Counted from the stretch's first letter, positions 10,898-27,229 are shown. The stretch is 38,853 nt of DNA from Candidatus Omnitrophota bacterium (GCA_043797665.1 JAZDPL010000020.1:1-38853), one strand, 5' to 3'. Numbers and translations are program-made. Notes: generated by a model from the letters alone, not told the origin.

Positions 10898-11430
10898 TCA
10901 GACAGTGGCTAAATTTTTTATCCATCCACGAAAAAGAATATTGGTAATAAAGTATTCACCGTTGATTTTATCTATATAGTCATCAGCCACCAGTGACCCC
11001 AATATCCTTTGAACACTGGAAGGATAAGACAATTCGTTAGTATCAATAGATTCTTTTGATAACAGATTTTTACCGCCTTTATTTACCATAACTTGCAAAA
11101 TCTGCTTTTTGGAACTGGATAGTCTTCCCCATTCTTCTCGGAAGTTCTGATCGTACTGCTTAATGAGTTGATTGAGGGCACTTTCAATATCTTTCTCCTG
11201 GATTGATCTTTTGGTAGAGAGCGCTTGATCCCAGAGTTCATGAGAAATCATCTGAACATAATATGGAATATTTTCTGCTGTTTCAATAATTTTCGATATG
11301 GTGGGTTTTGTTATTTTCAGGCCTGTTGCATGGAATTTCTTATAAATAAATTCTTAATTTCTTCTTTGCGATTACAAAAGTCACTACCGGTGACTGCTTC
11401 CCCGTATACAAAAGGATTTTTCATTTTCAT
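10898..11430 (-). pseudogene. Archaeal-type AAA ATPase-wHTH gene with internal deletion and frameshift
   Basis: MKMKNPFVYGEAVTGSDFCNRKEEI joins out of frame near 11355 to EFIYKKF...IPYYVQMISHELW...SSVQRILGSL...LFRGWI. Walker A and B are missing. Confidence 0.8.
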
Positions 11431-11578: not shown

Positions 11579-13546
11579 TTAGAAGACCAACTGGAAGACG
11601 GTCTTGGCGATCAGGGCGACCGCGACGGAGGCGGAGCCGATTAGACCCATTCCGCAGCCGTACCCGGCCAGAAGGAGCGGGGTCATCCTCCTCCACTCTT
11701 CCTTCCCGAAACGCCGTGCAAAGAAGAAATGTCCTAACAAAGCACCGCAGAACATCGGCAGGGCGGAATGGGGCAACATGGGAATACCACCGACGATTCC
11801 GTAGAAGAAAACAACGGGTAGTTTCAACAGATGTAAGAGGCCGGCCAGACCCAGACCACCGACTACCCCCCAGGTAATGAGTTGGGGCTTAACGGCCTCC
11901 AAAAGCCACCGGGCACCGCCGGGAACGGTGGAAGATGACCAGAGGGCTTTTTGAATCGCATACATAGGCCACATCCGCTGGACAAAGGGATAGGTAGAAG
12001 AAGGAATTGAACCCATGCGCCAGATAATGGACCAGAAGAGAAAACTGCAGAAGAGCATAATCCCTAAAGCGGTAAATTCTGCCTTGTACCAGGAGGTGAA
12101 CCGGGTCCGGAGCAGTTCCATCTGTTTAAACCCCTGGGTGGTACCGCCGTAGTTAAAGTACGGAACCGGCGCAAACCAGATATCCGCACCTTTATAACCG
12201 GAGAGGATAAACGTACCCTCGCGTAAATAGGGAAACGAAACCTGACTGGCCACACCGGTGATGCCGAACATCCGGGCCGAGATATAGGTTAAACCCGGCG
12301 TAAGAACAAAACCGTAAACAAAGAAAAGCCAGACCGGAAATCTGGGAACCAGAACAATACACAAAAGAATATAAAGAAGAGTAGCAATAATCCAGATTCC
12401 TAAAGCCAGAGATATGGGAACGTCTCCCCTGCCTTCGGGTAATTTTTCTTTTGGAACCGGGGCCTTATCTTTCCTCTTAGCCTTAAGAAAGAGAGGAGCC
12501 ACGCTCAGGATAAAGACCACAATACCCAATCCAATCATAATGCTGACCCAGAAATCAATGGTATTGGAAACCGAAGCGGGTATCGCACCCATTCCCGGCT
12601 GCCAGGTCTTAAGAAGATGGGTTTTATTATAAAGAATCGGGTTCATCACCGTCATCGCACCGATGGAACCGGCAAAGGTTCCCAGAACAACCCAGAAAGG
12701 CAAGACAAATCCAATTAAGATATTCCCCAGGTCGGTCATACACCCTAAAACCGCAGATGGAAGGATGGAACCCAACTGGCTGGTAAAATCCACCCAGGGA
12801 ATGGGAATAAGGGTGAACGGTTTTGCCATCACCAATCCGGTGAACGTAGGAATGAAGACATAGAACGCACCGTAAATAATACCAATCATCGCACCGATGG
12901 TAAAGATACGCCAGCGCGGGGTGTCTTTTTTGGCCGAACTGTCCGCCAAAGCCATTACGCCTTCCGCGGCTACCGGAGCCATCGGAAACTCCAGACGCTC
13001 CCGGTCGCTGGTTATCCGGAAAAAGGTATACCCTAAAGCAAAATTGTTAACCCGGTAAAGAAATTCGTGCCCGATGATAACCAGTATCGGCACCAACCAG
13101 GCGCGATGGAAGAAGGTGCGCTGGACAAGAGCGTCACTGCCGGCCGGCGGCACGACCCAGGCCGGAATAAGGTCGGTCAAGCCAAAGGCTTTGGCGTAAG
13201 GCGACTGGACGAAATACTGCTGCCAGATAGCGCTGCTGAAAGCACCTCCCTGAAGTATCATGTCACCGGTTCCAATCATCAGACCCGGTGCTACCAGAGA
13301 ACCCGCCACGATTAAGATAATATAAATCTCCTGACGCCGCAGTTGGACGAAGGAACGCTTGGCGACTTCAACAAACAAGATTAAAGTAACCCATTGGGCG
13401 GCACCGGCCAGAGAGAACCCGGCAATCAGACCCAGGTAAATGGCAGCCGGAAGCATAATCAATCCGATAAAGATTGCCGCGGCCAGGGTCTTGGTATTAA
13501 ACCCGCTTTCAAACGGTTCCGGAACTGAATTTTTTTGTGTATCCAT
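11579..13546 (-). CDS. OPT/YSL-like polytopic membrane transporter
   Basis: 655 aa with about 15 hydrophobic segments; PAAIYLGLIAG and ERLEFPMAPVAA are OPT-like motifs. Confidence 0.75.
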   Translation of the reverse strand: MDTQKNSVPEPFESGFNTKTLAAAIFIGLIMLPAAIYLGLIAGFSLAGAAQWVTLILFVEVAKRSFVQLRRQEIYIILIVAGSLVAPGLMIGTGDMILQGGAFSSAIWQQYFVQSPYAKAFGLTDLIPAWVVPPAGSDALVQRTFFHRAWLVPILVIIGHEFLYRVNNFALGYTFFRITSDRERLEFPMAPVAAEGVMALADSSAKKDTPRWRIFTIGAMIGIIYGAFYVFIPTFTGLVMAKPFTLIPIPWVDFTSQLGSILPSAVLGCMTDLGNILIGFVLPFWVVLGTFAGSIGAMTVMNPILYNKTHLLKTWQPGMGAIPASVSNTIDFWVSIMIGLGIVVFILSVAPLFLKAKRKDKAPVPKEKLPEGRGDVPISLALGIWIIATLLYILLCIVLVPRFPVWLFFVYGFVLTPGLTYISARMFGITGVASQVSFPYLREGTFILSGYKGADIWFAPVPYFNYGGTTQGFKQMELLRTRFTSWYKAEFTALGIMLFCSFLFWSIIWRMGSIPSSTYPFVQRMWPMYAIQKALWSSSTVPGGARWLLEAVKPQLITWGVVGGLGLAGLLHLLKLPVVFFYGIVGGIPMLPHSALPMFCGALLGHFFFARRFGKEEWRRMTPLLLAGYGCGMGLIGSASVAVALIAKTVFQLVF

Positions 13547-13559
13547 AATGTTGTAAAAT

Positions 13560-13609
13560 GTAGGGGCGACATTTATGACGCCCGCGGGCTTGATAAATCA
13601 AGCCCCTAC
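13560..13609. repeat. GTAG-type REP doublet supplying the stop codon of the 1458-aa gene
   Basis: gtaggggcgacatttatgacgccc-gc-gggcttgataaatcaagcccctac; the stop codon falls at 13598-13600. Confidence 0.9.
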
Positions 13610-16600
13610 GTTTATAATTTTTTCCCCTTCAGCCCGGTACTCGCGTTTCACTTTCGGACCAAGGGTACGCCAGACTAAAAACTGTTTGCGCATACCATCC
13701 AGGAACCGGCGGTTTAACCTCTGCCAGTCACTCTGTTCACCACTCTCCCTGTTTATTTGTACTTTTATTCCGTAGAAACCAAACTCATCCATCGGAACCG
13801 CCTTAAGGGTAGTATACTGACTCACCCCCAAATCAAACGGCGCTAAATAGACCCGGCAGGAAGTAATGTAGGAACGGCCCGCATCGCCGGATTCCACGGA
13901 AAGTTTACTGTCACTGGTATAGAAAGAACCAATCGCTTCGATGGAGTAAGAAGCGAAGTAATCACATAAAAAAGTCATCAGACCCAGAACCTCGTTTTCA
14001 CCCACCGTAAAGGGGAAATCAAAGTCCCAGACATCGCCACCCGGCTTGGGTAGAATCCAGCGCCGGGTAACGTCGGGAACCGATAACTGAGAAGCCTTCC
14101 GGGCGGGAAAGATGGTGGAAAGGAAGACCACAATCATCACGATTACCGTGGAAGTAACCGCGGAAAGAGACGAATAATTAAGAGTCAGACCTTTCAAGAG
14201 TCCTGCCGCCATCAAGATTTTGGTTACCACCTGCCCTAAGAGGTAACCGGCAACCGCACCGATAACCGCATAGACGCACGCCTCGGCAAAAAAGAGCGCC
14301 GCGATGTGACTGGGTGCCAGACCGACGCTTCCGTAAATTCCGATTTCCCGGATACGCTCATAGACCGCACCAAGCATCGTGTTGAGTACAATGAGGCTGG
14401 CGATGAGAATCGGAATAAAGAGGTTGCCGATGCCGGAAAAGGAGGTTAAACCCAACGAAGAATAGACCGAGGTCTTGCCGTCAACCCCGGCAAACAGGGT
14501 AACCGCCAGCCGGGAAACAAAGTCCTCGATCTCCTGCCGGATGCGGAATCCCGGGAAGAACTTAACCGCAATGGACTGGATGGTACCACCGCGGTCAAGC
14601 AGGAATCGGTAAGGCACGATAACCACATTGGCGGTCTCCTGGTGAGTAAAGGTTTCGGTCTTTCCCTCTCCTGCCATCACCTTGGCGGAGCGCTCCATCT
14701 TAAACTTTTGCATCTGCTGACTCGGCAGAACCGCAAAATCTACCGGGGTCAGACGTTCACCATCCAAATCCTGAAAATCGTTCATCTTTTTATCAGAGAT
14801 AATCCCCCGTACTATAAGACTCTCTCCAAAAATCTCCACATAACCCCGGCCGACCTCGGAAACCGGGAATTTTAAAGCTTCCGCCATCGTTTCCGAAAAG
14901 ATAACGGAGGGCTCGGAATCGCTCTCAAACCAGGTACCCGCACTCAAAAACCGGTCGAATCCGGTTACTGACTTCTCCTGGGGAGTTAAACCCAACAATC
15001 CGAAGGCAAAGGTTTCCTGATTTCCGCAAGCCACCCGGATAAAAGTCTTGTTCTCAAGAATAGGGTTGAGATACCACGCCCGGGGAGCCACAAAACCCTT
15101 CCGGATAAACTCACCCTTAACATAGTCGTAGGCGGGTGCTTCCAGGGGAGACCAGGTGCGGTCCCGGATAAGAAGCCCTTCGTAAGAAGCGGGATAGGAA
15201 CGGGCAATCTGGTTAAACCGGAGATAATTCTTGATGGAAGTGAAGGAAAGAACCGTAAAGGTCAGCAGAATCAAAGTAGATGCGGTTAGCGAGGTGCGCA
15301 GTTTCCGCCGTTTCATATTGGCAATGCCTAATCCGAAAGCGGTACCCGTAGCGGTGATTCTGCCCACGTCCGTTTCGTAGACTTTGGCGCGTTCACGTTT
15401 CAGACGCTGCATCAACTCTTCAAACCGGCCCGCCACTAAAAAGATTACCAGCACGGAAAGCGTCAGAATAATGAACGCTAAAAGAATCACCTCCGGACTG
15501 TTGCTCAGACGGAAGCCGGGGTGGACAAAACGCATCGCTAAATAGACCGCCAGAAAGAGACCGAATATTCCGGCAATCTGTTTCCGGATATCCGAATGAC
15601 CAAAGAAGAGCCTCTCGGTAAAGAAAGCGAAGGGCAAAAGGATGATGAAATAGAAGATAAGACCCTTAATCACGTCATTGGTAGTGGCACGGACATCGGG
15701 ATAGGCCCGGGATTCCAGTCCGACCGCACGGCGGCTGTTAACAAGAAATGAAAACCAATCCCGGTCAGCCAGATTCTGGGTCGCGGTCTTAAACCACTTC
15801 TTCGCTTCTTCGTGCAGGGCGGTTAAACGTTCGTTGGTAACTCCAAACCGGCTGAAGTTATTGATACGATACTCATTCAGATTAATCATGTCCTGACAGG
15901 CGCGGTAAGGCGTCCGGTTTAAAAGAAAAGGGTCGTCGGTAACCGCATATCCCAACCCTTCCGAACCGGCTTTACTCGTACCGTCCGGTGAGTTGAGCAA
16001 AAGAATCCGCTTACCTAAGGGACCAGCCTCACCGGCTACTTTCACCTCCATATCCGGCTGGGTATAGATAACCGCAACCGGCTCATCCTCGGAAGACCAT
16101 TCCCAGAGCCTGTTTTCCAGATAAGAAAAACCATACGCGGAGGGAATAGAATTGGCGGGATTGAAAAGGTCTAATTTATCCAACTGAATCAGGTACCGGG
16201 GGTCAACAAAATCATACAGGTTGGTGCTGGTACAATTAAAGAGTACTATCATCCAATCCTTAACCGATGCGTCCATTCTTACCCTCATCGGGAAATTTTC
16301 CGCGCCGTTGACTCCTCTATCGGGAGCCATGATGATACGACCGGTTTGAGGGTCCAGGTAATAAGATTCTAAATCCACTCCTGACTGACTCATCTGGGTA
16401 ATTTTAAATGACCCTTTTGCGTCGGTAAGGTCTAAATATTCTCCGCGAATTCCAAAAGCGCTCTTGCGATTTTGATAGGAGGAAAAATCCTTATTATACC
16501 CCCTGGGACAAACAATGGCATTTGGCACCGGTTGATTGGGTACAAAACCGGCTTTGGGGTCAAAGTAGACAATCTTTCCCTGCAGGGTTGCCATATTATC

Positions 16601-17974
16601 CTTAAGTTCCAGTTCTGCCTTCGGGAAGAAGTCCGGGTCAGTCAAGGCTCGGTAAAGTACGTTTCGCAGCAATTCAACCTGATTCGCCAATTTAGCGATA
16701 TTTAACCGGCTCAACGTATCCAGGGGTGTATCGACGTAGCGCCGGTTATCGTAAACGGTTACAAAGGAAAGAGCCGGAAGTCCGGCTGAAATAGCCAGGG
16801 AACCGTCGGTACGGATACTTTCCGGCAGGAAAGCCGAGAAGGCAATCCCCTTCTCCGGACTTACCCCGTTCAACAACTTTCCCTTATAGGCAGACGGGAC
16901 ATAATCCAGGAATTTTTTGGCAAAAGGCGCGAAATATCGCTGGGCATAGAGTTCGCTGCTATTGTGGTAGGAAGCAAGCAGGTCGGAATGACTGGAAAGT
17001 TCCAGTCCGATCATCAGTTTTATATCTATCGGTTCCGGAACCTTGGAAACGAACTCCCGGCGTTTCCGGTAATGCCGGTTGACAAAATCCCCCATTCCCC
17101 TCAAATAGGTAAAGTGACTGCCCACCGCGACAAAAAGTATTGTCCGTTTGGGAGGATACTGGCGGAAGTAATTGGCTAAATCAAGTAAGGCCGCGATACC
17201 GCTTGCCTGGTCTGCACCCGGAGCCAGAGATGGAATTACCGAAATAGAATCGTAATAAGCAGAGAGACAGACAATCTCTTTTTTTAAATCCGGGTCGGTA
17301 CCGGGGATATAACCCAAAATGTTGGCTGCCTCTGCCTTCTGCCAGTTCTGCCGGCAAAAGATAGTAGCCGATGGTAACGGCGCCTTAATCAAAAAGTTGG
17401 CATCTTCTTTCTTAATGTAAAACCGCGGGAGGTCAAGCGGAATACTCAAGAATTTCCGCCGGGCCTCAAAAAAAGTAGTATCAGTAGGTTCAATAAAGAC
17501 AATTGCTTTGGCACCTAACAGACCGGCGTCAAGCCAGCGGAAATCGCAGTTAAAGTCCAGAAGGACAATTGCTCCCTGTAATTCCTTCCCCTGATAATTG
17601 GCAACCGTTCCGTCACCACCGTAAACAACCGGCCCCTTGAATCCTTCCGGTGGCACCGTGGAAGTGCGCACAAAATTGGGCCAGACGGCCCGGATAGGAA
17701 ATTTTTTACCCTGACAGGCGATAAAAGCCCCCACCTCATCAACCGGCACCGCAACCGAATAAGTCTCCTTTTCAACTTCACGCAACCCCAGGGTTCTAAA
17801 CCTTGCTTCAATATAATCGGCGGCTGTCTGATTACCCGGATAACCAGGCATCCGGGAACCCAGGGAAGAGAGATAGGCAATATCTTCCTGAATCCCTGCC
17901 CAGACTACTTGAGAAAACAAAAGTACCACACAAAAAACAGCCCACTTACAGAATTTTTCTGCTTTCATATCCAA
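13598..17974 (-). CDS. Large membrane protein: PA + M28-peptidase-like domain fused to a MacB/FtsX-type permease
   Basis: Signal peptide; PA domain (GPVVYGGDG...GAKAIVFI); M28 fold (NILGYIPGTDP..KEIV..SAYYDS..PGADQASG..PKRTILF); LGIANMKRRKLRTSLT; FtsX motif ERIREIGIYGSVG...AE. Confidence 0.85.
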   Translation of the reverse strand: MDMKAEKFCKWAVFCVVLLFSQVVWAGIQEDIAYLSSLGSRMPGYPGNQTAADYIEARFRTLGLREVEKETYSVAVPVDEVGAFIACQGKKFPIRAVWPNFVRTSTVPPEGFKGPVVYGGDGTVANYQGKELQGAIVLLDFNCDFRWLDAGLLGAKAIVFIEPTDTTFFEARRKFLSIPLDLPRFYIKKEDANFLIKAPLPSATIFCRQNWQKAEAANILGYIPGTDPDLKKEIVCLSAYYDSISVIPSLAPGADQASGIAALLDLANYFRQYPPKRTILFVAVGSHFTYLRGMGDFVNRHYRKRREFVSKVPEPIDIKLMIGLELSSHSDLLASYHNSSELYAQRYFAPFAKKFLDYVPSAYKGKLLNGVSPEKGIAFSAFLPESIRTDGSLAISAGLPALSFVTVYDNRRYVDTPLDTLSRLNIAKLANQVELLRNVLYRALTDPDFFPKAELELKDNMATLQGKIVYFDPKAGFVPNQPVPNAIVCPRGYNKDFSSYQNRKSAFGIRGEYLDLTDAKGSFKITQMSQSGVDLESYYLDPQTGRIIMAPDRGVNGAENFPMRVRMDASVKDWMIVLFNCTSTNLYDFVDPRYLIQLDKLDLFNPANSIPSAYGFSYLENRLWEWSSEDEPVAVIYTQPDMEVKVAGEAGPLGKRILLLNSPDGTSKAGSEGLGYAVTDDPFLLNRTPYRACQDMINLNEYRINNFSRFGVTNERLTALHEEAKKWFKTATQNLADRDWFSFLVNSRRAVGLESRAYPDVRATTNDVIKGLIFYFIILLPFAFFTERLFFGHSDIRKQIAGIFGLFLAVYLAMRFVHPGFRLSNSPEVILLAFIILTLSVLVIFLVAGRFEELMQRLKRERAKVYETDVGRITATGTAFGLGIANMKRRKLRTSLTASTLILLTFTVLSFTSIKNYLRFNQIARSYPASYEGLLIRDRTWSPLEAPAYDYVKGEFIRKGFVAPRAWYLNPILENKTFIRVACGNQETFAFGLLGLTPQEKSVTGFDRFLSAGTWFESDSEPSVIFSETMAEALKFPVSEVGRGYVEIFGESLIVRGIISDKKMNDFQDLDGERLTPVDFAVLPSQQMQKFKMERSAKVMAGEGKTETFTHQETANVVIVPYRFLLDRGGTIQSIAVKFFPGFRIRQEIEDFVSRLAVTLFAGVDGKTSVYSSLGLTSFSGIGNLFIPILIASLIVLNTMLGAVYERIREIGIYGSVGLAPSHIAALFFAEACVYAVIGAVAGYLLGQVVTKILMAAGLLKGLTLNYSSLSAVTSTVIVMIVVFLSTIFPARKASQLSVPDVTRRWILPKPGGDVWDFDFPFTVGENEVLGLMTFLCDYFASYSIEAIGSFYTSDSKLSVESGDAGRSYITSCRVYLAPFDLGVSQYTTLKAVPMDEFGFYGIKVQINRESGEQSDWQRLNRRFLDGMRKQFLVWRTLGPKVKREYRAEGEKIINVGA

Positions 17975-17976
17975 CC

Positions 17977-19917
17977 CTAAATCCAGAAGACCTGGTTACT
18001 GGTCATATGGGTAAAAAAGTCTATGATAAACCAGACCGCGGCGGCGGAATACTGGCCTAAAATCAGTCCGAAGAAGAAAGGCTTGCCGTTTTCGTAGATT
18101 TTAGGTCCGCCGTAACGAAGCAGCAGAGTTTTCAAGAACCAGGCTAAGAAAATAGAAAGCCACAACTCGTTTACCAACCAGACCATACCCACGGTAAATC
18201 CGATGGGGTGGAGGGGCCACCAGATGAACCGGTTCCGTAAAAACATCAAGCCAACCATTACCACCGCCCCGGATAACCGGCAGAGCCAGCCCAACTTGTT
18301 TGGACCGGCCAGATTTTTAAGGTGGTCGGCGACATACTGATAAGGGGCCTGGGGACCACCGACAAAGTACCAGGAATTAAGGTTAATTCCACCTCGGGTG
18401 TAGGCTAATTTGAGGATAAGAAAAGAAGAAACCAGAAAACCGATCAGGATAGAGACAAGCATCAGCCAGAACAAAGGTCTAACCGAAGACGAAGACCCGA
18501 ATTTTTCGGCAATCTTCTCGCTGTGCATCGTTGAAGAAGCCGGAAAGGTTCGTATATCAGACGCGTAGACATAAGTAAGACCAAGGTTAGTAAGACTTCC
18601 TGGACCCACTACCTGACTCCCTAAGCCCGAAACCACCTGGGCCGAAGAGATGGAAGGAGCCACCAGAGTTGCCAAACCACCCTCCGCCACCAACCGGGTA
18701 AGACCGAGCCAAAAGACAAAAGCACCCAGAAGAAATAATAACGCCACCCAGTAACCCATTCCGGCAAGTCTCAACCATAAGATAAGACATATCATTCCGA
18801 TGATTAACCCCCAGAAGGCGTTCCGGTAGGAGAGTATTTCGTTAGAATCATCAATATCTTTTCTTCTTCCGGTCGCTTTGGAAAAAACTTCTTTCAGATG
18901 TCCCCGTGCCAGGAAGAATCCGAAAAAGACGAAGGACACAAAGGCGCCGGTTCCCAGGTTAGCCATAATGGCATTACCACCCGCTCCGTAAATCCCGATA
19001 TTCTCCGGACTGGAAATACCGGTAATATTGAACCAGCCTTTCAAAAGAAGAAAGATAAGATTAAAAAACCACAAAGAGAACGCGACATCCAGATTAATTA
19101 AATAAGAAAAGCCCAAAATAGGAAAACTGAGCCGAAAAGCAATATTAGTCGTCTGGCGAAAGACCGGGACGCTCCTCGCTAGTTGAGGATTGGGCACCAT
19201 AGGGAAGTATTTATGCAAGGCGACCAAACAGGAGATAACAAACGGTATAGCAAAACCCAACCAGAAAATTTTGCTTTTAAAGAGCGCCGGCACTTTCCCC
19301 TTGCCCGGCTGAACCATGGCCACCGGAAGTTGCGCCAGAGGAAAGGCAAGCCGTTCCCGTTCCACCCACTCCTTGCGCAGAATGGAGACGGCGCAGATAG
19401 TGACGAAATAAAGGATGAGCAAAAAGATGCCCCAGGAAAAAAGAGGCAGTGCCCAGGCGGACCAGGGGATGGCGGCGCCTTTGGGCAGGCCTTCGAAGAA
19501 GGTACGGGTAACCTCAATATCCTTCGGAGCCACCCAGGTCTTGATGTGAGGCAGAATTAGTTCCGCCCACCGGTTTTCCGGCGTGGCATAATAACTGGGT
19601 GCAGCCAGCATCGGCAGTAATTGACAACCTAACCCCATTTCCGCCACGGAAGCGGTTACCAGAATCATCGTATAGATAACAAGAAGTTCTGAAGGACTAA
19701 AGGAAAGATGATTTTTGGTAATCAGCCGCAGGAGAGGATTTAAGCAGAGAACTAAAAGGAGGAAGAGAAAGATGCCGCCGGCCGGCATGTGGTCAATCGC
19801 CATATAAGAACCTAAGACCACGTTGACCGAATACGCCGACATTATCACCAGAAGAACGGAGAAGAGCATTCCGGTCAGGACCGTCTTGAAGTTAAATGGA
19901 CTTTTTGTTTCCTTCAT
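17977..19917 (-). CDS. DUF6785/DUF6784-like polytopic membrane protein
   Basis: ELLVIY, LRKEWVERERLAFPLAQLP, R..AEGG, WWPLHPIG and LLRYGG..Y...KPFF.GLILG. ATG 19917 has a GGGAGG RBS. Confidence 0.8.
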   Translation of the reverse strand: MKETKSPFNFKTVLTGMLFSVLLVIMSAYSVNVVLGSYMAIDHMPAGGIFLFLLLVLCLNPLLRLITKNHLSFSPSELLVIYTMILVTASVAEMGLGCQLLPMLAAPSYYATPENRWAELILPHIKTWVAPKDIEVTRTFFEGLPKGAAIPWSAWALPLFSWGIFLLILYFVTICAVSILRKEWVERERLAFPLAQLPVAMVQPGKGKVPALFKSKIFWLGFAIPFVISCLVALHKYFPMVPNPQLARSVPVFRQTTNIAFRLSFPILGFSYLINLDVAFSLWFFNLIFLLLKGWFNITGISSPENIGIYGAGGNAIMANLGTGAFVSFVFFGFFLARGHLKEVFSKATGRRKDIDDSNEILSYRNAFWGLIIGMICLILWLRLAGMGYWVALLFLLGAFVFWLGLTRLVAEGGLATLVAPSISSAQVVSGLGSQVVGPGSLTNLGLTYVYASDIRTFPASSTMHSEKIAEKFGSSSSVRPLFWLMLVSILIGFLVSSFLILKLAYTRGGINLNSWYFVGGPQAPYQYVADHLKNLAGPNKLGWLCRLSGAVVMVGLMFLRNRFIWWPLHPIGFTVGMVWLVNELWLSIFLAWFLKTLLLRYGGPKIYENGKPFFFGLILGQYSAAAVWFIIDFFTHMTSNQVFWI

Positions 19918-20368
19918 CAGCCTCCCGAATCTCTTTCCAGGCACGCGGGTTGCCCGGATTAAGGTTCAGTTCCCGGATGAACTCTGCTTTAGCCTCAGTG
20001 AAATTCCCTTCGGCGCGATAAATCAGACCTAAAAGATAATGGACATCCGGGTAATAAGGAGCAATAGCCGACAACGTCCTGAAAGTAGTTTTGGCCTGAT
20101 TATAATTGCCGGAAAGGTAGTAACTCAAACCCAAATTGAAGTAAAGATTAGCACATCGGGGCGAATGTGTCAAGCCTTCGCAGATTACCTTCTGCGCCTC
20201 CAACCATTCCCCTTTCAACAGATGTTCCGCTGAGGTTTTGACATAATCCTTTTCTATCTGAGCCTTTTGCCGGCTTTCTACGGAAGGAAAGGCAAAGTTA
20301 ACGAGCAAACCTGTCCAGATAAGTACCCCGCAGATTACTAACCATTTAACCAAACGATTAAGGTCCAT
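19892..20368 (-). CDS. Membrane-anchored TPR protein
   Basis: N-terminal TM followed by about 3 TPR repeats (LYFNLGLSYY, VHYLLGLIY, ELNLNP). Overlaps the next gene. Confidence 0.85.
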   Translation of the reverse strand: MDLNRLVKWLVICGVLIWTGLLVNFAFPSVESRQKAQIEKDYVKTSAEHLLKGEWLEAQKVICEGLTHSPRCANLYFNLGLSYYLSGNYNQAKTTFRTLSAIAPYYPDVHYLLGLIYRAEGNFTEAKAEFIRELNLNPGNPRAWKEIREADEGNKKSI

Positions 20369-20385
20369 CGTTTACCCGCAGTTTT

Positions 20386-20448
20386 GTCATTCTGAGCGTA
20401 GCGAAGAATCTCCTCTTTTATTAGACCCTTCGTTTCCCTCAGGGTGAC
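20386..20448. repeat. GTCATTCTGAG-type palindromic repeat
   Basis: gtcattctgagcgtagcgaagaatct...agacccttcgtttccctcagggtgac. Confidence 0.85.
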
Positions 20449-20638
20449 ACCTTATGGTGTCATTATGCATCAAACGGCGCCAGCGCCGGTGAAAGATTAT
20501 CACCATCGCCGCCAGAGCAACTACTAAAACAGGCAGGGTAACTGCTCCGGGCCAGCGCAGAATCGCAGGCCAGAGCGCGGCAATCGCCAGAATAATGAGC
20601 CCGTTCTCCACCCAGATCGCTCGCGTCTCCTTATCCAT
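20387..20638 (-). CDS. Small two-TM membrane protein with a repeat-derived C-terminus
   Basis: Two hydrophobic helices, basic HRRWRR, then a tail encoded by the repeat. Confidence 0.65.
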   Translation of the reverse strand: MDKETRAIWVENGLIILAIAALWPAILRWPGAVTLPVLVVALAAMVIIFHRRWRRLMHNDTIRCHPEGNEGSNKRGDSSLRSE

Positions 20639-20695: not shown

Positions 20696-22114
20696 TCATT
20701 TTTCCGGACGTAAAAGGGGAAATAGAACGACCTCCCGGATAGAAGCGCATCCGGTTAAAAGCATCACCAGCCGGTCAATGCCGATGCCCAACCCCCCGGC
20801 CGGAGGCATACCGTAAGAAAGGGCCATAACGTAATCTTCATCAACCACCTTCAGCCGGTCCGGGCGATTCTGCATTACCTTCTCTTCGAAACGCCGGCGT
20901 TGTTCCTCCGGGTCATTTAACTCGGAATACGCATTACCGACCTCTAACCCACCGATAAATAGTTCGAATCGCTCTACAACACCTTCATTATCCGGCTTAC
21001 TCTTTGCCAGCGGTGAAATCTCCCTGGGATAATCAAGAACAAAGGTGGGTGCAATCAGGTCCGGCTGAATTCTTACCTGGAAAAGAGAATCCAGAAGGTC
21101 AAAATTAGTTTCTTCGCCGGTTAACGGAATACCTTCTTTCGTGGCCGCCATAACCAATTCTTCCTTATTATACCAGTTATTAACCCCTAAATATTCTTTA
21201 GACAATGCCCTTAAAGTAACGCGCCGCCAGGGTGGAGTTAAGTCTATTTCTTTTCCCTGATAAATCGTAGACTTTGTGTCCGGCACAAGAGAGAGAATAA
21301 GATTCTGGGCAATCTCAGCCATCGTTTCGTAGTCGCCGTAAGCTTGATATAGTTCTAACATCGTGAATTCCGGGTTGTGAAGCGGCGAGATGCCTTCATT
21401 CCGAAAGGAGCGGTTAATTTCATATACCTTCTCCAATCCTCCCACCAAAAGCCTCTTTAGATATAACTCCGGCGCAATTCGCAGATAAAGGTCCATATCC
21501 AGGGTATTGTGGTGGGTAATAAATGGTTTGGCTTCAGCGCCGCCGGCGATCGGATGCATCATCGGGGTCTCTACTTCTAAAAAACCCTGTTCGTTCAGGT
21601 ACTGCCGCATCCGGCTTATGACGGAACTGCGGGCAAGAAAAATATTCCGGACATCCTGATTGGCAATCAAATCCAAATACCTTTGCCGGAACCGTGTTTC
21701 CACATCCTTTAACCCGTGCCACTTCTCGGGCAGCGGCCGGTTAGATTTAGAAAGGAGAATTAATTTGGTGACCTTTATGGTCATCTGACCGGTCCTGGTC
21801 CGGAAGGGTTCTCCTTCCACGCCGATAATATCTCCAATATCCAGCAAAAGGAAGACCTCAAACTCAGAACCCAGGACGTCTTTCTGGAAGTAGATCTGAA
21901 TTACACCGGAAATGTCAGACAGGTCACCGAAGGCTGCTTTGCCGTGGATACGGAGCGCGGTAATCCTTCCGGCGAGCCGCACCGGACCGGAATTATCATT
22001 CACTTCCGCAGCCCGGGCAGTCCGGTCAAAACGCCGACCGTAGGGATAAATACCGCGGTCATACAGCGCCTTCAACTTCCGCTGCCGTTCCGCAATCAAA
22101 TCTTTTTCCGCCAT
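20696..22114 (-). CDS. lysS: Lysine--tRNA ligase (class II)
   Basis: OB-fold, PLPEKWHGL, RFRQRYLDL, YLRIAPELYLK, FRNEG, HNPEFT, GLGIGIDR. Confidence 0.98.
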   Translation of the reverse strand: MAEKDLIAERQRKLKALYDRGIYPYGRRFDRTARAAEVNDNSGPVRLAGRITALRIHGKAAFGDLSDISGVIQIYFQKDVLGSEFEVFLLLDIGDIIGVEGEPFRTRTGQMTIKVTKLILLSKSNRPLPEKWHGLKDVETRFRQRYLDLIANQDVRNIFLARSSVISRMRQYLNEQGFLEVETPMMHPIAGGAEAKPFITHHNTLDMDLYLRIAPELYLKRLLVGGLEKVYEINRSFRNEGISPLHNPEFTMLELYQAYGDYETMAEIAQNLILSLVPDTKSTIYQGKEIDLTPPWRRVTLRALSKEYLGVNNWYNKEELVMAATKEGIPLTGEETNFDLLDSLFQVRIQPDLIAPTFVLDYPREISPLAKSKPDNEGVVERFELFIGGLEVGNAYSELNDPEEQRRRFEEKVMQNRPDRLKVVDEDYVMALSYGMPPAGGLGIGIDRLVMLLTGCASIREVVLFPLLRPEK

Positions 22115-22359: not shown

Positions 22360-22944
22360 TTACTTTATTTTGCGCAATTGCCGGTTGATTTTCTCTAGAT
22401 CAAACTCTTCTGGGTCAAAGTGGCCACCTATCCATCCTAACCTGTCCTGATGTTCAGGGTGGTTAGGATTTTGGATGGCTTCTAAGAAGTAATAGTAGCC
22501 ATGGATACCACCCACATCTTCTGGGGGACAGGCTTGTTCACCTCCCAGACAAACCGGATAGAAGGTTTCCTTTTGAATCGGGAGAACATTCTCTACCAAC
22601 AAGAGGTGTTCCCAACTATCTCCAAAGTCATATTCGTATTTGAACTTAACGCCTTCACCTGTTATTACCTGGTTAAGTCTGTATTCTCTTTCATCTTCGG
22701 TCTCAACCAAGCCATCGTATTCCTCGCCAGGAACATCATAGAGAATACCGCCAATGATGAATTGGTGCAGGTGGTCATCTTCCCAGGGCATAACAATCTG
22801 CAGAATTTGGTGGAGTTTGTGTAAGGTAATATTACTTTTTACCTGAATGCGGCGCCAGATAGGTGGCTGGGAATCCTTTAGGGTGACTTTTATCTGGTAG
22901 ACTGAAACCGGTTTTGAGATTGTGGTGGCATCCATAGGTCTCAT
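22360..22944 (-). CDS. Plasmid pRiA4b ORF-3 family protein
   Basis: VYQIKVTL..PPIWRRI, LH..LQ..M.W...HLHQF, YEYDFGDSWEH, ACPPEDVGG. Confidence 0.93.
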   Translation of the reverse strand: MRPMDATTISKPVSVYQIKVTLKDSQPPIWRRIQVKSNITLHKLHQILQIVMPWEDDHLHQFIIGGILYDVPGEEYDGLVETEDEREYRLNQVITGEGVKFKYEYDFGDSWEHLLLVENVLPIQKETFYPVCLGGEQACPPEDVGGIHGYYYFLEAIQNPNHPEHQDRLGWIGGHFDPEEFDLEKINRQLRKIK

Positions 22945-22978
22945 TCTTTTCTTATAAAAGATACCACATTCTTATCTG

Positions 22979-24097
22979 TTAAGCAAAACAGCACCGAGAG
23001 TGCGAAACGAGGTTTGTCCCGCCGGAAGAAAAGTTATCGGTAATTTTTCTGAAACATAAAACCAGGGTTTTAATCAGGTCAGTCCGGGTAAGCAGAAAGG
23101 TGTCGGTTATCGCCATTAAGGCAATGGAAAGAACACTCAATGTCCGTGTTGTTCCGTGCCGGCACTTTTTGCGTACAATCTCCACTTCTTTACGCAGACT
23201 CTTACCTATGTCGCTGGCTCCAAGACAGGATTTGAAGTCCCGGAAATTGACCTCAATATTCATTCTGGCCCGGTAATAATCCACCACCGATTCAGTCGGC
23301 AGGATATCTTGGCTGTCAGCCGGAACCAGAAGAAACCAGGGCTCCTTAAACCCTTTCTCCCGGTAGACAATAACGTCTATCTTTTCCTTCCCTTTGTCCT
23401 GATAAAGAACCCCGCAATAACGGATGACTTTCCCCTGACGGTGTTTCAATCTGCCTAAACTCTTCCGGCAAATCTTACCATTTTCTTTATACTCAATGAT
23501 TACTTCTCTTCGGCCCCGGATGATAAAAAACCATTTATTCTTCCGGCAGGTTTTCAAAAGGGAGACTCTGGCGTATCCTCTGTCCATTATCCACAAAAGC
23601 CTTAAATCTTTTGGTAGAGAAGTAGCCAGTCTTTCAAGAAAGGCATCCTCCAGGAGAGTCTGGCTTTCTTTAATCTTTCCGTATTCAAAGGTGGTTGTGG
23701 CTACTGGAATGGCTCGGCCGTCGGTGGGACAACTGGCGGTAATCACCTGCACATCACCCACCGCAGTCTGGTCCACAATCAAAGGCAAAAGAGACGGATT
23801 TTCCACCCCGGTGGCCAGCTTTATCAGATAAGGAGAAAGATCGGCCATCTTAAATTGAGAGTTATCCAGAAATCGGGAGAGTCGCTTATACCGGCTCTTG
23901 GGACTGCCTTCGGTAGCCAAAACCCTGGCAATACCGCTTAAGGAAATCCTGCCGTACCAGCCCCGGGGTGTCCGCAACAACATCACCAGAGCAATGGTAA
24001 GGTGAGCAAGATTCTTCACCACTGAAAGGCGAAGAGTGGGAAATTGTTGTTTTAGAATTTCTTTGATTTGCTGATATCCTTCTTGGTAATCATCCAT
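22979..24097 (-). CDS. IS4-like DDE transposase (possibly internally deleted)
   Basis: IVDQT, IMDRGY, KEPWFL and the YREK motif YYRARMNIEVNFRDFKS. Confidence 0.85.
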   Translation of the reverse strand: MDDYQEGYQQIKEILKQQFPTLRLSVVKNLAHLTIALVMLLRTPRGWYGRISLSGIARVLATEGSPKSRYKRLSRFLDNSQFKMADLSPYLIKLATGVENPSLLPLIVDQTAVGDVQVITASCPTDGRAIPVATTTFEYGKIKESQTLLEDAFLERLATSLPKDLRLLWIMDRGYARVSLLKTCRKNKWFFIIRGRREVIIEYKENGKICRKSLGRLKHRQGKVIRYCGVLYQDKGKEKIDVIVYREKGFKEPWFLLVPADSQDILPTESVVDYYRARMNIEVNFRDFKSCLGASDIGKSLRKEVEIVRKKCRHGTTRTLSVLSIALMAITDTFLLTRTDLIKTLVLCFRKITDNFSSGGTNLVSHSRCCFA

Positions 24098-24488
24098 TCT
24101 TTTTCATCCTCCCCTGCCTGCAGGCCGAAGCCATGGCAGCCGAAGTCTTGATGTAGGCAGCCTTTCGACGGGCGTAAGCCTGACTTTTTAAAAGCGAAAA
24201 AAGAATTTGTGTGTGTTGGTTAAGAAGAAATTTAAACTTTTTGTAATTGGCGGACCAGGACAGGGCTTCTTCCTGTCTGGCCTTGTCCACATAGACGGTT
24301 TTAGTTTTCCCTCTTTCCTTGTAGGTGATGCAGAGAAAGGAATGTGGCTTTCCTCTGGTACAGGTACAATTGGGTTTACCACACTTCATTTCCCTGAATA
24401 CCAACGAACCTTTTAGTAACGGCCCCAGTTTGCGCATCTGTGACCTCAAATTTCTTGCCTTTTCCCATAGCATTTCCCTTTCACCCAT
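24090..24488 (-). CDS. DUF6788-family protein
   Basis: GPLLKGSL....KCGKPNCTC..G.PH......GKTKTVYV. ATG 24488 has an RBS; overlaps the transposase start. Confidence 0.85.
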   Translation of the reverse strand: MGEREMLWEKARNLRSQMRKLGPLLKGSLVFREMKCGKPNCTCTRGKPHSFLCITYKERGKTKTVYVDKARQEEALSWSANYKKFKFLLNQHTQILFSLLKSQAYARRKAAYIKTSAAMASACRQGRMKKNG

Positions 24489-24510
24489 AATCTTCCTCCT
24501 TTCTAACAGT

Positions 24511-24539
24511 ATTATAACTGTAAGAAAAAGAAAAGTCAA
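24511..24539 (-). promoter_or_regulatory. Sigma70 promoter for the DUF6788-transposase pair
   Basis: TTGACT, 17 nt, TATAAT on the minus strand. Confidence 0.7.
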
Positions 24540-24639
24540 GGGGAAGGATTAAAAAAGTTTGATTGCAAAATGTGCTTAGAAAGCAGGCCTGTTAAGGGTT
24601 TTCAAAAACTGGGGGAGGGCAAACCACTTTGTCAAGCCG

Positions 24640-24980
24640 TTGAATGAGAGAGGTTTGCATTGGCTTCTCTTTCCAGCCTGAAATTGGTCCTGGTTTCTTC
24701 TTTATCTCCCTGTAGTTAAATCCTGTCCTGGTAATGGCTCCCTGCCAACTACCGTAATAGTAATTAGCCATACTGACTACTACGTCATAGCCTTGCCGGA
24801 ACATCGCCTTCCAGGAAAGGTCTTTTCCTTTCTGTTTTAAAGTACGGATTCTTTCTTTTACTCTCTCTTTGCTCCACCTTTCTAATTTTCTTACCGCCTG
24901 GTAGTTCACACCTATGGCTGAGAGGGTGTTTTTCCATCCACCAAAGTGGTAGAGGCTGGCTGCGAGTAGTTTGGGGTGCC
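24640..24980 (-). pseudogene. Fragment of a helical-repeat protein (homing-endonuclease-associated-repeat-like)
   Basis: Two repeats, L.AA...HFGGWKNTL..IG.NY and MANYYYGSWQGAI...G.NY, with WSKERV between. No credible start; the ORF runs into the inverted repeat. Confidence 0.55.
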
Positions 24981-25114
24981 GGCGGCCACCATTCGGGGAC
25001 GGGAGGGGAGGGGTTGTATCCCCTCCCTCGGGAAGCGACGGAGAGCCTCCCCTACAAAAAATCATTTCTAGAAATCTGTGTAATCAATAAAAATGCAAGT
25101 ATTTAATGCGTTTC

Positions 25115-26203
25115 TTATAGTTCATAATTTACTTTGACTCGTTCCCCTTTTCTTTTAAAAGATTCTTCACAGGCAAAAACAACTGCCATTGTTTTCCAGC
25201 TGTCAAACGCACTCATAAAGGGTCTTTCGCCTGCTAATATTCTCCGGGCAAAATCCTGTAAGAATCCATCTGCATCATGAAAGAGTTTCCCGTGAGGGAT
25301 TCCTTTATAACTCTCGGTTCGTTTCAGAACCGGGTGACCGGCCGGTCCTTCAAATTTAAATAACTGGATATATCTTTCCCAGAAATCCGACCTGATACTT
25401 CCTTCAGAACCCATTAAACTTGCGGCGTATTCATGGCCTAATTTTGGTTCCATGCCAGGTTCAAGAACCGGATGAGCTCCCCGGTGTTGGAGTGTTACCA
25501 GTGTTGCCAGTTTACCGTCCGGAAAGAAACAGAGTGTACAGGCTGGTTCTCTATATCCCCGATGCCAGCCATCTGGTCCCCGGAGACCTGGCGCAGGGAT
25601 TGATTCAACTTCTTCAATTTCCACACCCATCCATTTCCGGAAGATATCCAGACGGTGGCATCCTTCTTCAAAATAATACCCGCCTACTTTGGAAGGGTTT
25701 GCACGCCAGTCTCCATGCTTTTTCAGAAATCCTGGACCTCCAGAGCAATGAATAAAAAAGATGTTTTTCACCTCTCCCAATTCTCCGGCATCAACCAGTT
25801 CTGTTATCCATCTACCCATTATAGAATATCTCGTTTCAAAATCAATCTGGAGATATTTCTTGCTTTCCTTTTCCGCGTTAAGCATCCCTCCTATTTCTTC
25901 GCGAGTTAGTCCCATCGGCTTTTCAGAGAAAACATGTTTTCCTGCTTTCAGCGCATCCGTAGCTACCCGGGCGTGGAGAAAATTAGGAGTTGCATTATAG
26001 ACCAGATAGATATCTTCATGTCTCAAAAGTTCCTGATAATCTCTGTAGCCTGGAATCTGTAATTTCTCGCATATCTCTTTTCGCCTTTCATCATTAGTTT
26101 CTGCAATGGCTACCAGTTCCATATTTGGAGATGATTTAACTATACTACATAGACCAGACCCAGCACCACCTGTTCCAATAATACCTATACCGATTTTTTT
26201 CAT
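25115..26203 (-). CDS. Gfo/Idh/MocA family oxidoreductase
   Basis: GIGIIGTGGAG, ATPNFLH, GKHVFSEKP, EEGCHRLD; GGAGG RBS. Confidence 0.93.
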   Translation of the reverse strand: MKKIGIGIIGTGGAGSGLCSIVKSSPNMELVAIAETNDERRKEICEKLQIPGYRDYQELLRHEDIYLVYNATPNFLHARVATDALKAGKHVFSEKPMGLTREEIGGMLNAEKESKKYLQIDFETRYSIMGRWITELVDAGELGEVKNIFFIHCSGGPGFLKKHGDWRANPSKVGGYYFEEGCHRLDIFRKWMGVEIEEVESIPAPGLRGPDGWHRGYREPACTLCFFPDGKLATLVTLQHRGAHPVLEPGMEPKLGHEYAASLMGSEGSIRSDFWERYIQLFKFEGPAGHPVLKRTESYKGIPHGKLFHDADGFLQDFARRILAGERPFMSAFDSWKTMAVVFACEESFKRKGERVKVNYEL

Positions 26204-26233
26204 TTTACATCCTCCCATTTTTCTATAAAGTTA

Positions 26234-27229
26234 TTACAAACTATCTTTTAAAAATTGGATAGCATTTGCCATCATCTTTCCTGTTATTTCATGTCCGTGC
26301 TCAGGTTCTTCGTGTACAAAAACAGATTTCGGTAAGGTTTCCTTTTTGCATCTATTTTCAATGGTCTTGATAAATGCACGGTACATCGGTTCCGGACTGC
26401 CTTCGTCCTTTGCCCCCCAGCCGAAAAATAGTTTGCGCGGGGCGGCCAAGGCAACTACCTGGTCCCAATCAATGCCTGCTTTTATCATGCCGGAAATAAA
26501 ATGATAGAGGCAATGGCCAAGTCTATACTGATAGAATTGGTGCCGAAGAGTCATAAAACTGAAGAAACAAACAGCCGCTTTAATTTTTGGGTTGACCGCA
26601 GTAAGGATATAGTTCTGAGTACTTCCGCCTGACCAGCCAATAGAACCAATGCTCTTTGCACCGAGAAATTCCAGAGATTCAATGGCCCGGGAATTATCCC
26701 AGACAGATTTCCAGCATAAACTTTTTCCACGGGCTGACAACTCCATATGGGTATTAATCTCATCAAAAAAAAATTTAGTATATCCCCATTTAGCCCGCCT
26801 TTCACCAAAGCATAGAGCATCAGGAGCAAGTACCCGGAAACCGGATAATGCTGAGATATAACTATACTGACCTGGGTCATTGGGATTTGGTTTACAATGG
26901 TATTCCTTGCCAACAGGGAATATATCATCTCCTCCGTGTGCATGTATTGAGAGAATCCCTGGTGCATCACTCTTTAGTCCTTTGCGAAACAGGTGAAAAG
27001 CCGGGACTGTTTCTCCAGAAGCTACATCGTACTCTACCCTCTGTTTAATAATTTCACCCGGTAGTTCTTTTTCATTTATAATCTTGAGGTTTAAGGGAAC
27101 CAGAGGTTTTTCAAAATTACCCAGAAGGTTAAGAAATCTATGCTTAACCTCTTCAATTGAAAGGTCTTCCGGATAATTCTTCGGTTTATTAATGAAATTT
27201 CCGGGAATAGTAACTGGAAGGTCAGCCAT
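26234..27229 (-). CDS. Alpha/beta hydrolase (dienelactone hydrolase-like)
   Basis: HAHGG, APDALCFGERR, nucleophile GWSGG, probable Asp (KDE) and His (GHE). AAAGGAGG RBS before ATG 27229. Confidence 0.88.
   Translation of the reverse strand: MADLPVTIPGNFINKPKNYPEDLSIEEVKHRFLNLLGNFEKPLVPLNLKIINEKELPGEIIKQRVEYDVASGETVPAFHLFRKGLKSDAPGILSIHAHGGDDIFPVGKEYHCKPNPNDPGQYSYISALSGFRVLAPDALCFGERRAKWGYTKFFFDEINTHMELSARGKSLCWKSVWDNSRAIESLEFLGAKSIGSIGWSGGSTQNYILTAVNPKIKAAVCFFSFMTLRHQFYQYRLGHCLYHFISGMIKAGIDWDQVVALAAPRKLFFGWGAKDEGSPEPMYRAFIKTIENRCKKETLPKSVFVHEEPEHGHEITGKMMANAIQFLKDSL

Follow-up and report, generated by a model that had tools for sequence, protein, structure and literature searches.

An inactive-looking M28-FtsX fusion and its OPT-fold neighbours in Candidatus Omnitrophota: a conserved operon with a candidate ABC motor encoded elsewhere

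Overview

Five minus-strand open reading frames (ORFs) lie packed in a row downstream of lysS in a 38,853-nt stretch of Candidatus Omnitrophota DNA (the window, by which the whole stretch is meant). They encode a peptide with two transmembrane segments, a membrane-anchored TPR protein, a polytopic DUF6785/DUF6784 protein, a 1458-aa fusion in which a peptidase-like M28 head is joined to an FtsX permease, and a polytopic protein with a predicted OPT fold. The reading that we favour, at a probability of about 0.55, is that four of these genes (peptide, TPR protein, fusion and OPT-like protein) encode the substrate-handling half of a type VII (MacB/Lol-like) machine of the ATP-binding cassette (ABC) kind, that its motor genes lie on a separate contig (C86) of the window's genome, and that the machine imports its substrate, the last part being only weakly favoured. 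Gene content, conservation, the loss of M28 residues and the co-occurrence of the motor genes were read directly from the genomes, and the MacB-like and OPT folds from predicted models.

A conserved operon

A first-pass annotation of the window had described five tightly coupled minus-strand genes after lysS, and the ORFs, domains, coordinates and spacings are all as it claimed (Table 1). The genes are real, for each of the large proteins has hundreds of homologues, far beyond chance. The TPR and DUF6785 genes overlap by 26 bp, given a DUF6785 start at the ATG at 19917, and gaps of 2 bp and 51 bp follow. That ATG is probably the true start, since relatives align from about residue 10. The same annotation had filled the 51-bp gap with a repetitive extragenic palindrome (REP), which is roughly right: a repeated palindrome is present, and it overlaps the stop codon of the fusion. 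With up to three mismatches the palindrome has 338 matches over both strands of the 2.69-Mb genome, or about 169 sites, and it is on that account called REP-like.

Table 1. Features of the operon, of the fusion protein and of the candidate motor genes. Coordinates are those of the window unless a contig is named.
Feature	Coordinates	Strand	Remarks
lysS	20696-22114		lysine-tRNA ligase, 614 bits; upstream of the five ORFs
Two-transmembrane peptide, 83 aa	20387-20638	-	hydrophobic segments at residues 8-26 and 31-49; first gene after lysS
Membrane-anchored TPR protein, 158 aa	19892-20368	-	TPR_2 E 3.6e-13; one N-terminal hydrophobic segment, residues 9-27
DUF6785/DUF6784 polytopic protein, 655 aa from GTG	17977-19944	-	PF20581 and PF20580
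Fusion, 1458 aa, TTG start	13598-17974	-	Pfam Peptidase_M28 and FtsX
M28/PA-like extracytoplasmic head, residues ~30-470	16565-17887	-	lacks canonical metal and catalytic residues
Extra bundle of three transmembrane segments, residues 768-847	15434-15673	-	before the FtsX module; strongly conserved in alignment
FtsX/MacB permease module	14081-15415	-	transmembrane helix 1, MacB-type periplasmic domain (residues ~923-1169), helices 2-4
Conserved C-terminal domain, residues 1299-1458 (about 160)	13601-14080	-	predicted cytoplasmic
Perfect palindrome, 20 nt, REP-like	13586-13605	strandless	straddles the fusion stop codon and runs into the 51-bp gap
OPT-fold (predicted) polytopic protein, 655 aa	11579-13546	-	sub-threshold PF03169 match
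Motor trio	C86:9933-11710		PqqD-like gene, short FtsX, ATPase
PqqD-like gene	C86:9933-10319		PF05402 26.0 bits, cut-off 23.4
Short FtsX	C86, within trio		four hydrophobic segments, ~37 residues between the first two: no periplasmic domain
LolD/MacB-type ATPase	C86:10970-11710		intact-looking Walker A-, signature- and Walker B-like motifs (motif names are our reading)

The operon is a fixture of the window's phylum, here represented by 65 genomes; near-identical proteins carry the public names 'Candidatus Ratteibacteria' or 'Omnitrophota'. A strong match to the fusion (E <= 7e-79) is present in 60 of the 65 genomes and an OPT-like gene in 59, which bears out the earlier suggestion that the system is conserved in the lineage. 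The other five genomes, four of which are 62-83% complete, have weak FtsX-domain matches only. TPR gene, fusion and OPT-like gene stand next to one another in that order in all 20 of the loci fetched, which come from five families, and their stop and start codons often overlap. The small peptide is more elusive, being detectable by BLAST in 5 of the 20, while a 58-108-aa ORF with two transmembrane segments abuts the TPR gene in 11; with the criteria combined, such a peptide lies upstream of the TPR gene in at least 13 of 20 loci. Three further loci (L074, L075 and L105) likewise have a TPR homologue directly upstream of the fusion. Judged by gene order, the conserved unit in the phylum is an older four-gene operon of peptide, TPR protein, fusion and OPT-like protein.

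The DUF6785 gene has a different history. The family is multi-copy: 60 of the 65 phylum genomes have matches to it, from 1 to 10 in each, and none of the 20 other loci has such a gene between the TPR gene and the fusion. A same-genus genome (G054) does have the gene in that position, where it follows lysS and the peptide and TPR genes just as it does here; the sister genus has the orthologue (72% identical) on another contig, beside a gene for a GH77 4-alpha-glucanotransferase. Because within the phylum it lies between TPR gene and fusion in the window's genus only, the DUF6785 gene is best described, on comparative grounds, as a genus-specific insertion into the older operon, and the idea that it encodes a fixed subunit is not supported.

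Recurrence beyond the phylum

The fusion is far from confined to one phylum. At E <= 1e-5 there are 1666 homologues among the 7995 candidates scored, and at least 719 fusion loci were confirmed in species genomes, many of them in records named Latescibacterota or Gemmatimonadota. The best 78 fusion loci were annotated with our own profiles, and 54 of these have at least 1 kb on both flanks; many of the surveyed loci come from the window's own phylum, so they are not independent. An OPT-fold gene directly adjoins the fusion in 41 of the 54 loci and lies within the flanks in 53. The commonest order by far is fusion then OPT-like gene (32 loci), followed by a DUF6785 gene a few kb from the fusion (12), the window's own order of DUF6785, fusion and OPT-like (4), DUF6785 then fusion (4) and fusion then DUF6785 (1); a single locus (L133) has no OPT-fold neighbour. 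A member of the OPT superfamily thus stays next to the fusion although its subfamily may differ from locus to locus, and this is the strongest support for a partnership between the two. The earlier suggestion that fusion and OPT-fold proteins act together gains strength from this recurrence across phyla.

The wider settings of the fusion vary. Glycan loci were considered as its usual setting in a second phylum and set aside: only L114, of the seven loci annotated there, has polysaccharide-lyase-like neighbours, and TPR proteins are more frequent (L103, L121 and L130). One record labelled Caldisericota (L105:4464-4778) has only a 104-aa DUF6785-like ORF between the TPR gene and the fusion, with 63% identity over the BLAST match, and may be a decayed copy of the window's arrangement. 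Another recurring neighbour is a 311-339-aa protein encoded after an OPT-like gene of ~800 aa (L125:16117-17127, L128:16068-17087, L129:10642-11652, L132:16095-17090 and L075:15474-16409). Scans of the L075, L128 and L129 copies gave no Pfam family, and tblastn with the L075 and L128 proteins gave no homologue in the window's genome.

A candidate motor encoded elsewhere in the genome

A domain scan of the window gave no ABC ATPase, either in the operon or elsewhere in it. The first-pass annotation had stressed this absence, and for the window it holds, but the genome does carry a matching LolD/MacB-type ATPase, as part of a trio of genes on contig C86, and the equivalent genes are operon-linked in other lineages. 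In six of the 78 surveyed loci (L074, L075, L091, L093, L097 and L099) the operon runs on after the OPT-like gene into a 214-220-aa FtsX and a 243-260-aa ABC ATPase, and a 122-aa gene of the PqqD family (PF05402, 42 bits for both copies) is present as well in the two of these checked for it (L074 and L093). The C86 ATPase is 73-75% identical, and the C86 short FtsX 47-49% identical, to these operon-linked genes, while the fusions of the loci with a linked motor are about 48-49% identical to that of the window. Domain models place the C86 ATPase in the MacB/LolD/FtsE/YbbA/DevA-type group; it reaches no equivalog cut-off, the best NCBIfam match being LolD (TIGR02211) at 235.8 bits against a cut-off of 307.75. 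The NCBIfam lasso and GeoRSP PqqD models match the C86 PqqD-like protein weakly, below their cut-offs.

The short FtsX is single-copy in 61 of the 65 genomes of the window's phylum, and in two genomes of one family (G061 and G063) it divergently adjoins the operon of peptide, TPR protein and fusion. In G061 its other neighbour is the ATPase, and the G063 contig ends just after the short FtsX. In the second phylum, for which 141 genomes of at least 85% completeness were taken, the fusion is present in 131 genomes and a short FtsX orthologue, always in single copy, in 130. Both are present in 130, neither in 10, the fusion only in 1 (G091) and the short FtsX only in 0; the ten genomes without both have only MacB/LolC-type matches of 410-480 aa. 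The other type VII systems of the window's genome, a MacA/MacB-like one on C22 and a LolCE/LolD-like one on C92, each have an ATPase of their own alongside. The search for an orphan LolD/MacB-type ATPase that had been suggested thus leads to C86, where the neighbouring short FtsX shares the presence and absence of the fusion in the second phylum. Given that the trio is orthologous to the operon-linked genes and that short FtsX and fusion occur together, the seeming lack of an ATPase is most likely an effect of gene dispersal, with the motor encoded in trans.

These data also bear on the earlier idea of a machine that does without an ATPase, in which the C-terminal domain of the fusion would replace the nucleotide-binding partner. 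Such a machine would fit the lack of an ATPase in the window's operon and in most loci of the phylum, and the fusion does carry an extra conserved C-terminal domain that belongs to no known family. Yet a matching ATPase operon is found in the same genome and in 61 of the 65 phylum genomes, the ATPase is joined into the operon in 6 of 78 loci, and the short FtsX tracks the fusion in the second phylum, so we regard an ATPase-independent machine as very improbable.

Two of the linked motors have further neighbours. A PilZ gene (L074:9909-10334) overlaps the stop codon of the ATPase by 4 bp, and a GAF-GGDEF gene (L093:17165-18268) starts 15 bp after it, which hints at control of the system by cyclic di-GMP in some lineages.

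The fusion and its inactive-looking peptidase head

Two Pfam families are recognised in the fusion, Peptidase_M28 (PF04389) at residues 218-437 (E 2e-12; 47.6 bits, above the gathering score of 21.3) and FtsX (PF02687) at residues 1186-1298 (E 4e-14). Neither residues 440-770 nor the C-terminal domain have any Pfam match at E <= 5, and the periplasmic domain has none of its own. There are eight hydrophobic segments (residues 8-26, 768-786, 800-818, 829-847, 896-914, 1174-1192, 1224-1242 and 1270-1288), which, taken with the topology of MacB, suggest the order of signal or anchor, extracytoplasmic head of ~740 residues, three extra transmembrane segments, short cytoplasmic linker, FtsX module and cytoplasmic C-terminal domain.

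The head aligns to PA-domain aminopeptidases (2ek8, E 2e-8), and the residues expected of an active enzyme have been replaced. Against 2ek8, the fusion has Tyr in place of the first metal-binding His, His-Phe in place of the Glu-Glu pair and Gly in place of the last His. A survey of 79 distinct full-length fusion homologues gave Tyr or Phe at the first-His position in 73 of the 74 with a recognisable motif, and His in the remaining one, while the Glu-Glu pair is kept in 0 of the 58 in which that motif could be recognised. Three residues in this part of the protein (Tyr241, Asp242 and His287) are invariant in a 15-sequence alignment that spans phyla. With M28 catalytic residues missing from almost every one of the 79 homologues, the head reads as a pseudo-peptidase in nearly all members examined, with a remodelled site that is itself conserved. 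The set of residues that defines an active M28 enzyme (His, Asp, Glu, Asp/Glu and His ligands plus a catalytic Glu) was checked and is incomplete in the fusion, so that the protein, though of the M28 fold family by its sequence, should not be filed as an active peptidase.

The permease module resembles MacB both in sequence (best match to MacB in the PDB, E 7.7e-8) and in predicted structure (Foldseek, MacB, E 5e-10). Residues 854-1458 were modelled with AlphaFold on an alignment of 19 sequences, and the model has a mean predicted local distance difference test score (pLDDT) of 69, with 80-90 in the domains and poor values in the transmembrane helices. The modelled periplasmic domain (residues 70-316 of the fragment) aligns with the periplasmic domains of MacB, LolE and LolC at Z 11.2-13.4, the top match being MacB (3ftj; Z 13.4, root-mean-square deviation (rmsd) 3.7 A, 182 residues aligned). 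As expected of a type VII permease, FtsX transmembrane helices 2-4 are preceded by helix 1 and an extracytoplasmic domain, and in the predicted model a MacB-type domain lies between helices 1 and 2. On the model, the module is a member of the MacB/FtsX fold class, that is, a type VII ABC permease.

The C-terminal domain ranks with the best-conserved parts of the fusion and is densely invariant in alignments. Its model, an alpha+beta fold with a pLDDT of about 80-90, gives borderline matches to KA1 (Z 9.3, rmsd 2.9 A, 104 residues aligned), to Bet v 1-like folds (Z 8.8, 3.2 A, 119 residues) and to StARkin folds (Z 8.3-8.6), and a spermine-synthase N-domain scores as well as the START/Bet v 1 folds. 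Assignment as a START/Bet v 1 lipid-binding domain was considered but not taken up, and the likeness serves as no more than a lead, since Z values of 8.3-9.3 are in the range of common arrangements and KA1 and the spermine-synthase N-domain do equally well. A protein atlas returned only scores below 0.8 for this domain, to SnoaL-like clusters.

The OPT-fold proteins

The OPT-like protein matches the Pfam OPT profile (PF03169) over positions 133-616 of 623, with an E-value of 1.9e-5 and 24.0 bits against a cut-off of 25.8. Its AlphaFold2 model, built from 15 sequences, has a pLDDT of 72 and a predicted template modelling score of 0.78. Foldseek aligns the model to barley Yellow Stripe 1 (7wst/7wsr; E 2.5e-9, probability 1.00, template modelling scores 0.61/0.65), and the next match has an E-value of 0.1. 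Because Yellow Stripe 1 is a solved transporter of the OPT/YSL family, the modelled protein is assigned the OPT/YSL fold despite its failure to reach the Pfam threshold.

The DUF6785/DUF6784 protein, which has 13 hydrophobic segments, matches both of its families above the gathering score (PF20581, E 3.9e-125, 418.6 bits; PF20580, E 1.9e-30, 105.4 bits). Alignment of the OPT-like and DUF6785 families with hhalign gave a probability of 83% and an E-value of 9e-6 over the first ~230 columns, and the two are probably distant relatives, as judged by these profiles. Profile searches of PDB sequences with either alignment gave nothing meaningful.

Two other DUF6785/DUF6784 paralogues are found in the window's genome (C72:19097-27017, locus L004, and C79:66287-77664, locus L005). 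Their neighbours include genes for a GntR/LacI-type regulator, F5/8 type C, GH2, GH42 and CBM9 proteins and a GFO/IDH/MocA oxidoreductase. Since the paralogues sit among glycan-type genes, their gene context points to transport of sugars or oligosaccharides by the DUF6785 family. Each of these loci also has a DUF1559 (SBP_bac_10) N-methyl pilin-like gene, and the two may represent a binding-protein-plus-permease scheme of uptake. Longer versions of the family exist as well: P0123 (1411 aa) is a DUF6785/DUF6784 protein to which Pfam adds PF13360 (PQQ_2, BamB-like) and PF13570 (beta-propeller), and P0121 (1237 aa) has an N-terminal half of ~680 residues with no assigned family.

Fusion and OPT-fold proteins could also be linked by pathway only, the fusion, short FtsX and ATPase forming an FtsEX-like periplasmic regulator of a cell-wall or surface hydrolase, and the OPT-fold proteins being ordinary ion-driven importers that recycle the released fragments, so that co-transcription would reflect no more than a shared pathway. 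FtsEX is described as acting through a catalytically dead peptidase-fold partner, EnvC, and the M28 head of the fusion is likewise dead. DUF6785 proteins also occur with no fusion nearby, on C72 and C79 and in G057, so the OPT-fold part can work alone. Against such a loose connection, the OPT-like subfamily is single-copy in the window's genome and was seen only beside the fusion in 20 of 20 loci fetched, and the partnership persists across phyla despite a swap of the OPT-fold family, a tighter bond than is usual for pathway neighbours. A link by pathway alone is accordingly judged quite unlikely.

Mechanism and direction of transport

In the favoured reading, the FtsX module of the fusion would pair with the short FtsX to form an asymmetric dimer, like that of LolC and LolE, under two copies of the ATPase. 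Binding and hydrolysis of ATP would move the MacB-type periplasmic domain and with it the attached dead M28/PA head. Together with the anchored TPR protein, the head would hold an extracytoplasmic oligomer, which may be a peptide or a glycan, and the oligomer would be handed to the adjacent OPT-fold permease, the membrane path for the substrate. In the window's genus the operon has taken in a second permease of the OPT superfamily, the DUF6785/DUF6784 protein. That the parts physically assemble, their stoichiometry, and the substrate and direction of transport are all inferred.

Import is the direction toward which we lean, weakly and at somewhat less than even odds, because characterised OPT-family members are importers and the DUF6785 paralogues lie in glycan-catabolic loci.

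Several points weigh against an importing machine of this kind, or against the machine as a whole. Its assembly is argued from gene order and co-occurrence, and the related genomes in the co-occurrence counts are not independent observations; the ten second-phylum genomes that lack both fusion and short FtsX may be one clade, in which case the double absence is possibly a single loss event. The short FtsX could form a homodimeric transporter of its own. The OPT-like protein falls below the Pfam gathering threshold for OPT, and in the window's phylum the genes around the operon are housekeeping rather than catabolic. No characterised type VII ABC system is known to import; all of them work outward or in the periplasm. 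Finally, the ATPase is followed directly by a PilZ gene in L074 and by a GAF-GGDEF gene in L093, and these neighbours, together with a PqqD-like peptide chaperone, fit export or surface assembly at least as well as they fit import.

Export or envelope assembly would turn the same parts around. The OPT-fold protein would bring a peptide, or a lipid-linked or hydrophobic product, to the outer leaflet, from which the ABC-driven MacB-like domain would extract it in the manner of LolCDE and YbbAP; the pseudo-M28 head and the TPR protein would pass the product on towards the outer envelope, and the PqqD-like protein would chaperone a peptide in the cytoplasm. The outward or periplasmic action of all known type VII ABC systems, which is established knowledge, agrees with this, as do the near-universal and mostly single-copy occurrence of the system among housekeeping genes in the window's phylum, the PqqD-family gene in the motor operon, the PilZ or GAF-GGDEF gene after the ATPase in two loci, and the borderline likeness of the C-terminal domain (Z 8.3-9.3) to KA1, Bet v 1 and StARkin folds, which bind lipids or membranes. 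That likeness, however, lies in the range of common arrangements, characterised OPT-family members are known to import, and the DUF6785 paralogues sit in glycan-catabolic loci; moreover, no biosynthetic genes for an exported product are conserved beside the operon in the loci examined. We regard export or envelope assembly as a serious rival, though a less likely one than import.

Returning to the favoured machine, gene counts in the second phylum suggest how it may be organised. Some genomes there have two or three fusion paralogues (three places each in G099 and G117) and one short FtsX per genome, and because of this disparity the counts suggest that a shared engine serves several substrate-specific cassettes. 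The boldest form of this reading is a new hybrid class of transporter, in which a shared ABC engine, made of the LolD/MacB-type ATPase and a minimal FtsX, would power interchangeable cassettes of pseudo-peptidase/FtsX and OPT-fold proteins for ATP-driven or ATP-gated uptake of oligomers. We hold this to be doubtful; if true, it would make a type VII ABC system an importer for the first time, with a modularity like that of energy-coupling factor (ECF) transporters and a secondary-transporter fold run through mechanotransmission. The comparison to ECF transporters is one of analogy only (a shared energising module with several cassettes) and implies no homology.

Relation to known systems

Taken whole, the system matches none of LolCDE, MacAB-TolC, FtsEX-EnvC or YbbAP-TesA. 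Adaptor and second periplasmic domain are lacking, the dead M28 head is fused instead of being a separate partner, and to these come the extra bundle of three transmembrane segments, the new C-terminal domain and the OPT-fold partner.

With LolCDE the system shares a four-helix FtsX-type permease with a MacB-type periplasmic domain (model against LolE and LolC, Z 11.2-13.0) and, as proposed here, an asymmetric pair of permeases under a LolD-like ATPase (LolD being the best NCBIfam match, 236 bits). However, the ATPase falls below the LolD cut-off of 308 bits, the short FtsX has no periplasmic domain at all, the fusion has ~850 extra N-terminal residues (pseudo-M28/PA head and three transmembrane segments) and a 160-aa C-terminal domain, an OPT-fold neighbour is obligatory, and the genome has a separate Lol-like system on C92. 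MacB is the best match for the permease module of the fusion in both sequence and fold, but the operon lacks a MacA-type adaptor, ATPase and permease are separate chains, and a separate MacA/MacB-like set is present on C22.

FtsEX-EnvC and FtsEX-PcsB, as they have been described, offer the precedent of a type VII ABC engine that acts through a catalytically dead, peptidase-fold extracytoplasmic partner. Here, by contrast, the dead domain is of the M28/PA type rather than LytM/M23 or CHAP and is covalently fused; no conserved amidase partner is found, and the OPT-fold partner has no counterpart in FtsEX. YbbAP-TesA is similar in having an accessory periplasmic protein with an enzyme fold and more than four transmembrane helices per permease chain (model against YbbAP, Z 11.2-11.4). 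YbbP is described as having two FtsX modules per chain and an active esterase for a partner, whereas the fusion has one FtsX module, with a separate short FtsX, and an inactive-looking head.

The OPT-like protein resembles the OPT/YSL family (Transporter Classification (TC) 2.A.67) in the predicted fold of its whole chain and in a sub-threshold PF03169 match over most of the profile. It differs in its low identity (14-15%), in falling below the Pfam cut-off and in belonging to a subfamily whose members were in every case found next to an ABC-type permease, whereas the OPT proteins known so far work on their own as ion-coupled importers. As for the head, nicalin (a weak match, E 0.013) provides an example of an M28/PA-type fold that has become a binding scaffold after loss of its metal ligands, and the transferrin receptor is presumably a comparable pseudo-M28 case. 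Both are eukaryotic and single-pass, whereas the fusion is bacterial and joined to an ABC permease.

Other features of the window

The surroundings of the operon include several features of separate interest. A 117-aa ORF at 10898-11251 was considered as a sixth component and dropped, having no Pfam match and not being kept in the sister genus. Terminator-like sites in the scan numbered 19, against 18.6 in shuffled sequence, and so carry no information on the ends of the operon.

On the other side of lysS, some 6 kb (22360-28356) separate that gene from a divergent FGE-sulfatase-like gene (28418-29395). This interval contains a PRiA4_ORF3-like gene, a DDE transposase, DUF6788, a GFO/IDH/MocA oxidoreductase and a weak fucosidase-like gene. 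Since lysS and the FGE-like gene are direct neighbours in G054, which is of the same genus, and likewise in the sister genus, this interval looks, from this comparison, like a recent and partly mobile insertion. Farther away, beside dnaJ, a 697-aa ORF (2641-4734) has only a partial match to the profile of V-type ATPase subunit I (residues 194-465, E 3e-25).

Significance

The first-pass annotation knew of no functional characterisation of this system, and the literature searched, in titles and abstracts, indeed holds no description of it. No mention of DUF6785, DUF6784, PF20581 or PF20580 was found in those titles and abstracts, subscription journals lying outside the coverage, and among the matches listed there is no relevant work that combines FtsX, M28 and OPT. 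The titles and abstracts on type VII systems and mechanotransmission among the matches listed, which represent that literature in part, do not mention the 'OPT family'. This silence is set against well over a thousand homologues and a system nearly universal in two or more phylum-level groups whose bacteria are mostly uncultured, one of the Ratteibacteria type and the other labelled Latescibacterota or Gemmatimonadota.

The system joins two worlds of transport that are not known to cooperate, the type VII ABC mechanotransducer and the OPT-superfamily permease, and adds to them a dead peptidase head and a cytoplasmic domain of no known family. Records labelled Gemmatimonas carry the system, and testing at the bench may for that reason be possible; cultured strains of Gemmatimonas exist. 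Assignment of a substrate would give a function to DUF6785, DUF6784, the OPT-like subfamily, the short FtsX and the C-terminal domain of the fusion, and the outcome may be a new route of peptide or glycan uptake or a new step in envelope assembly.

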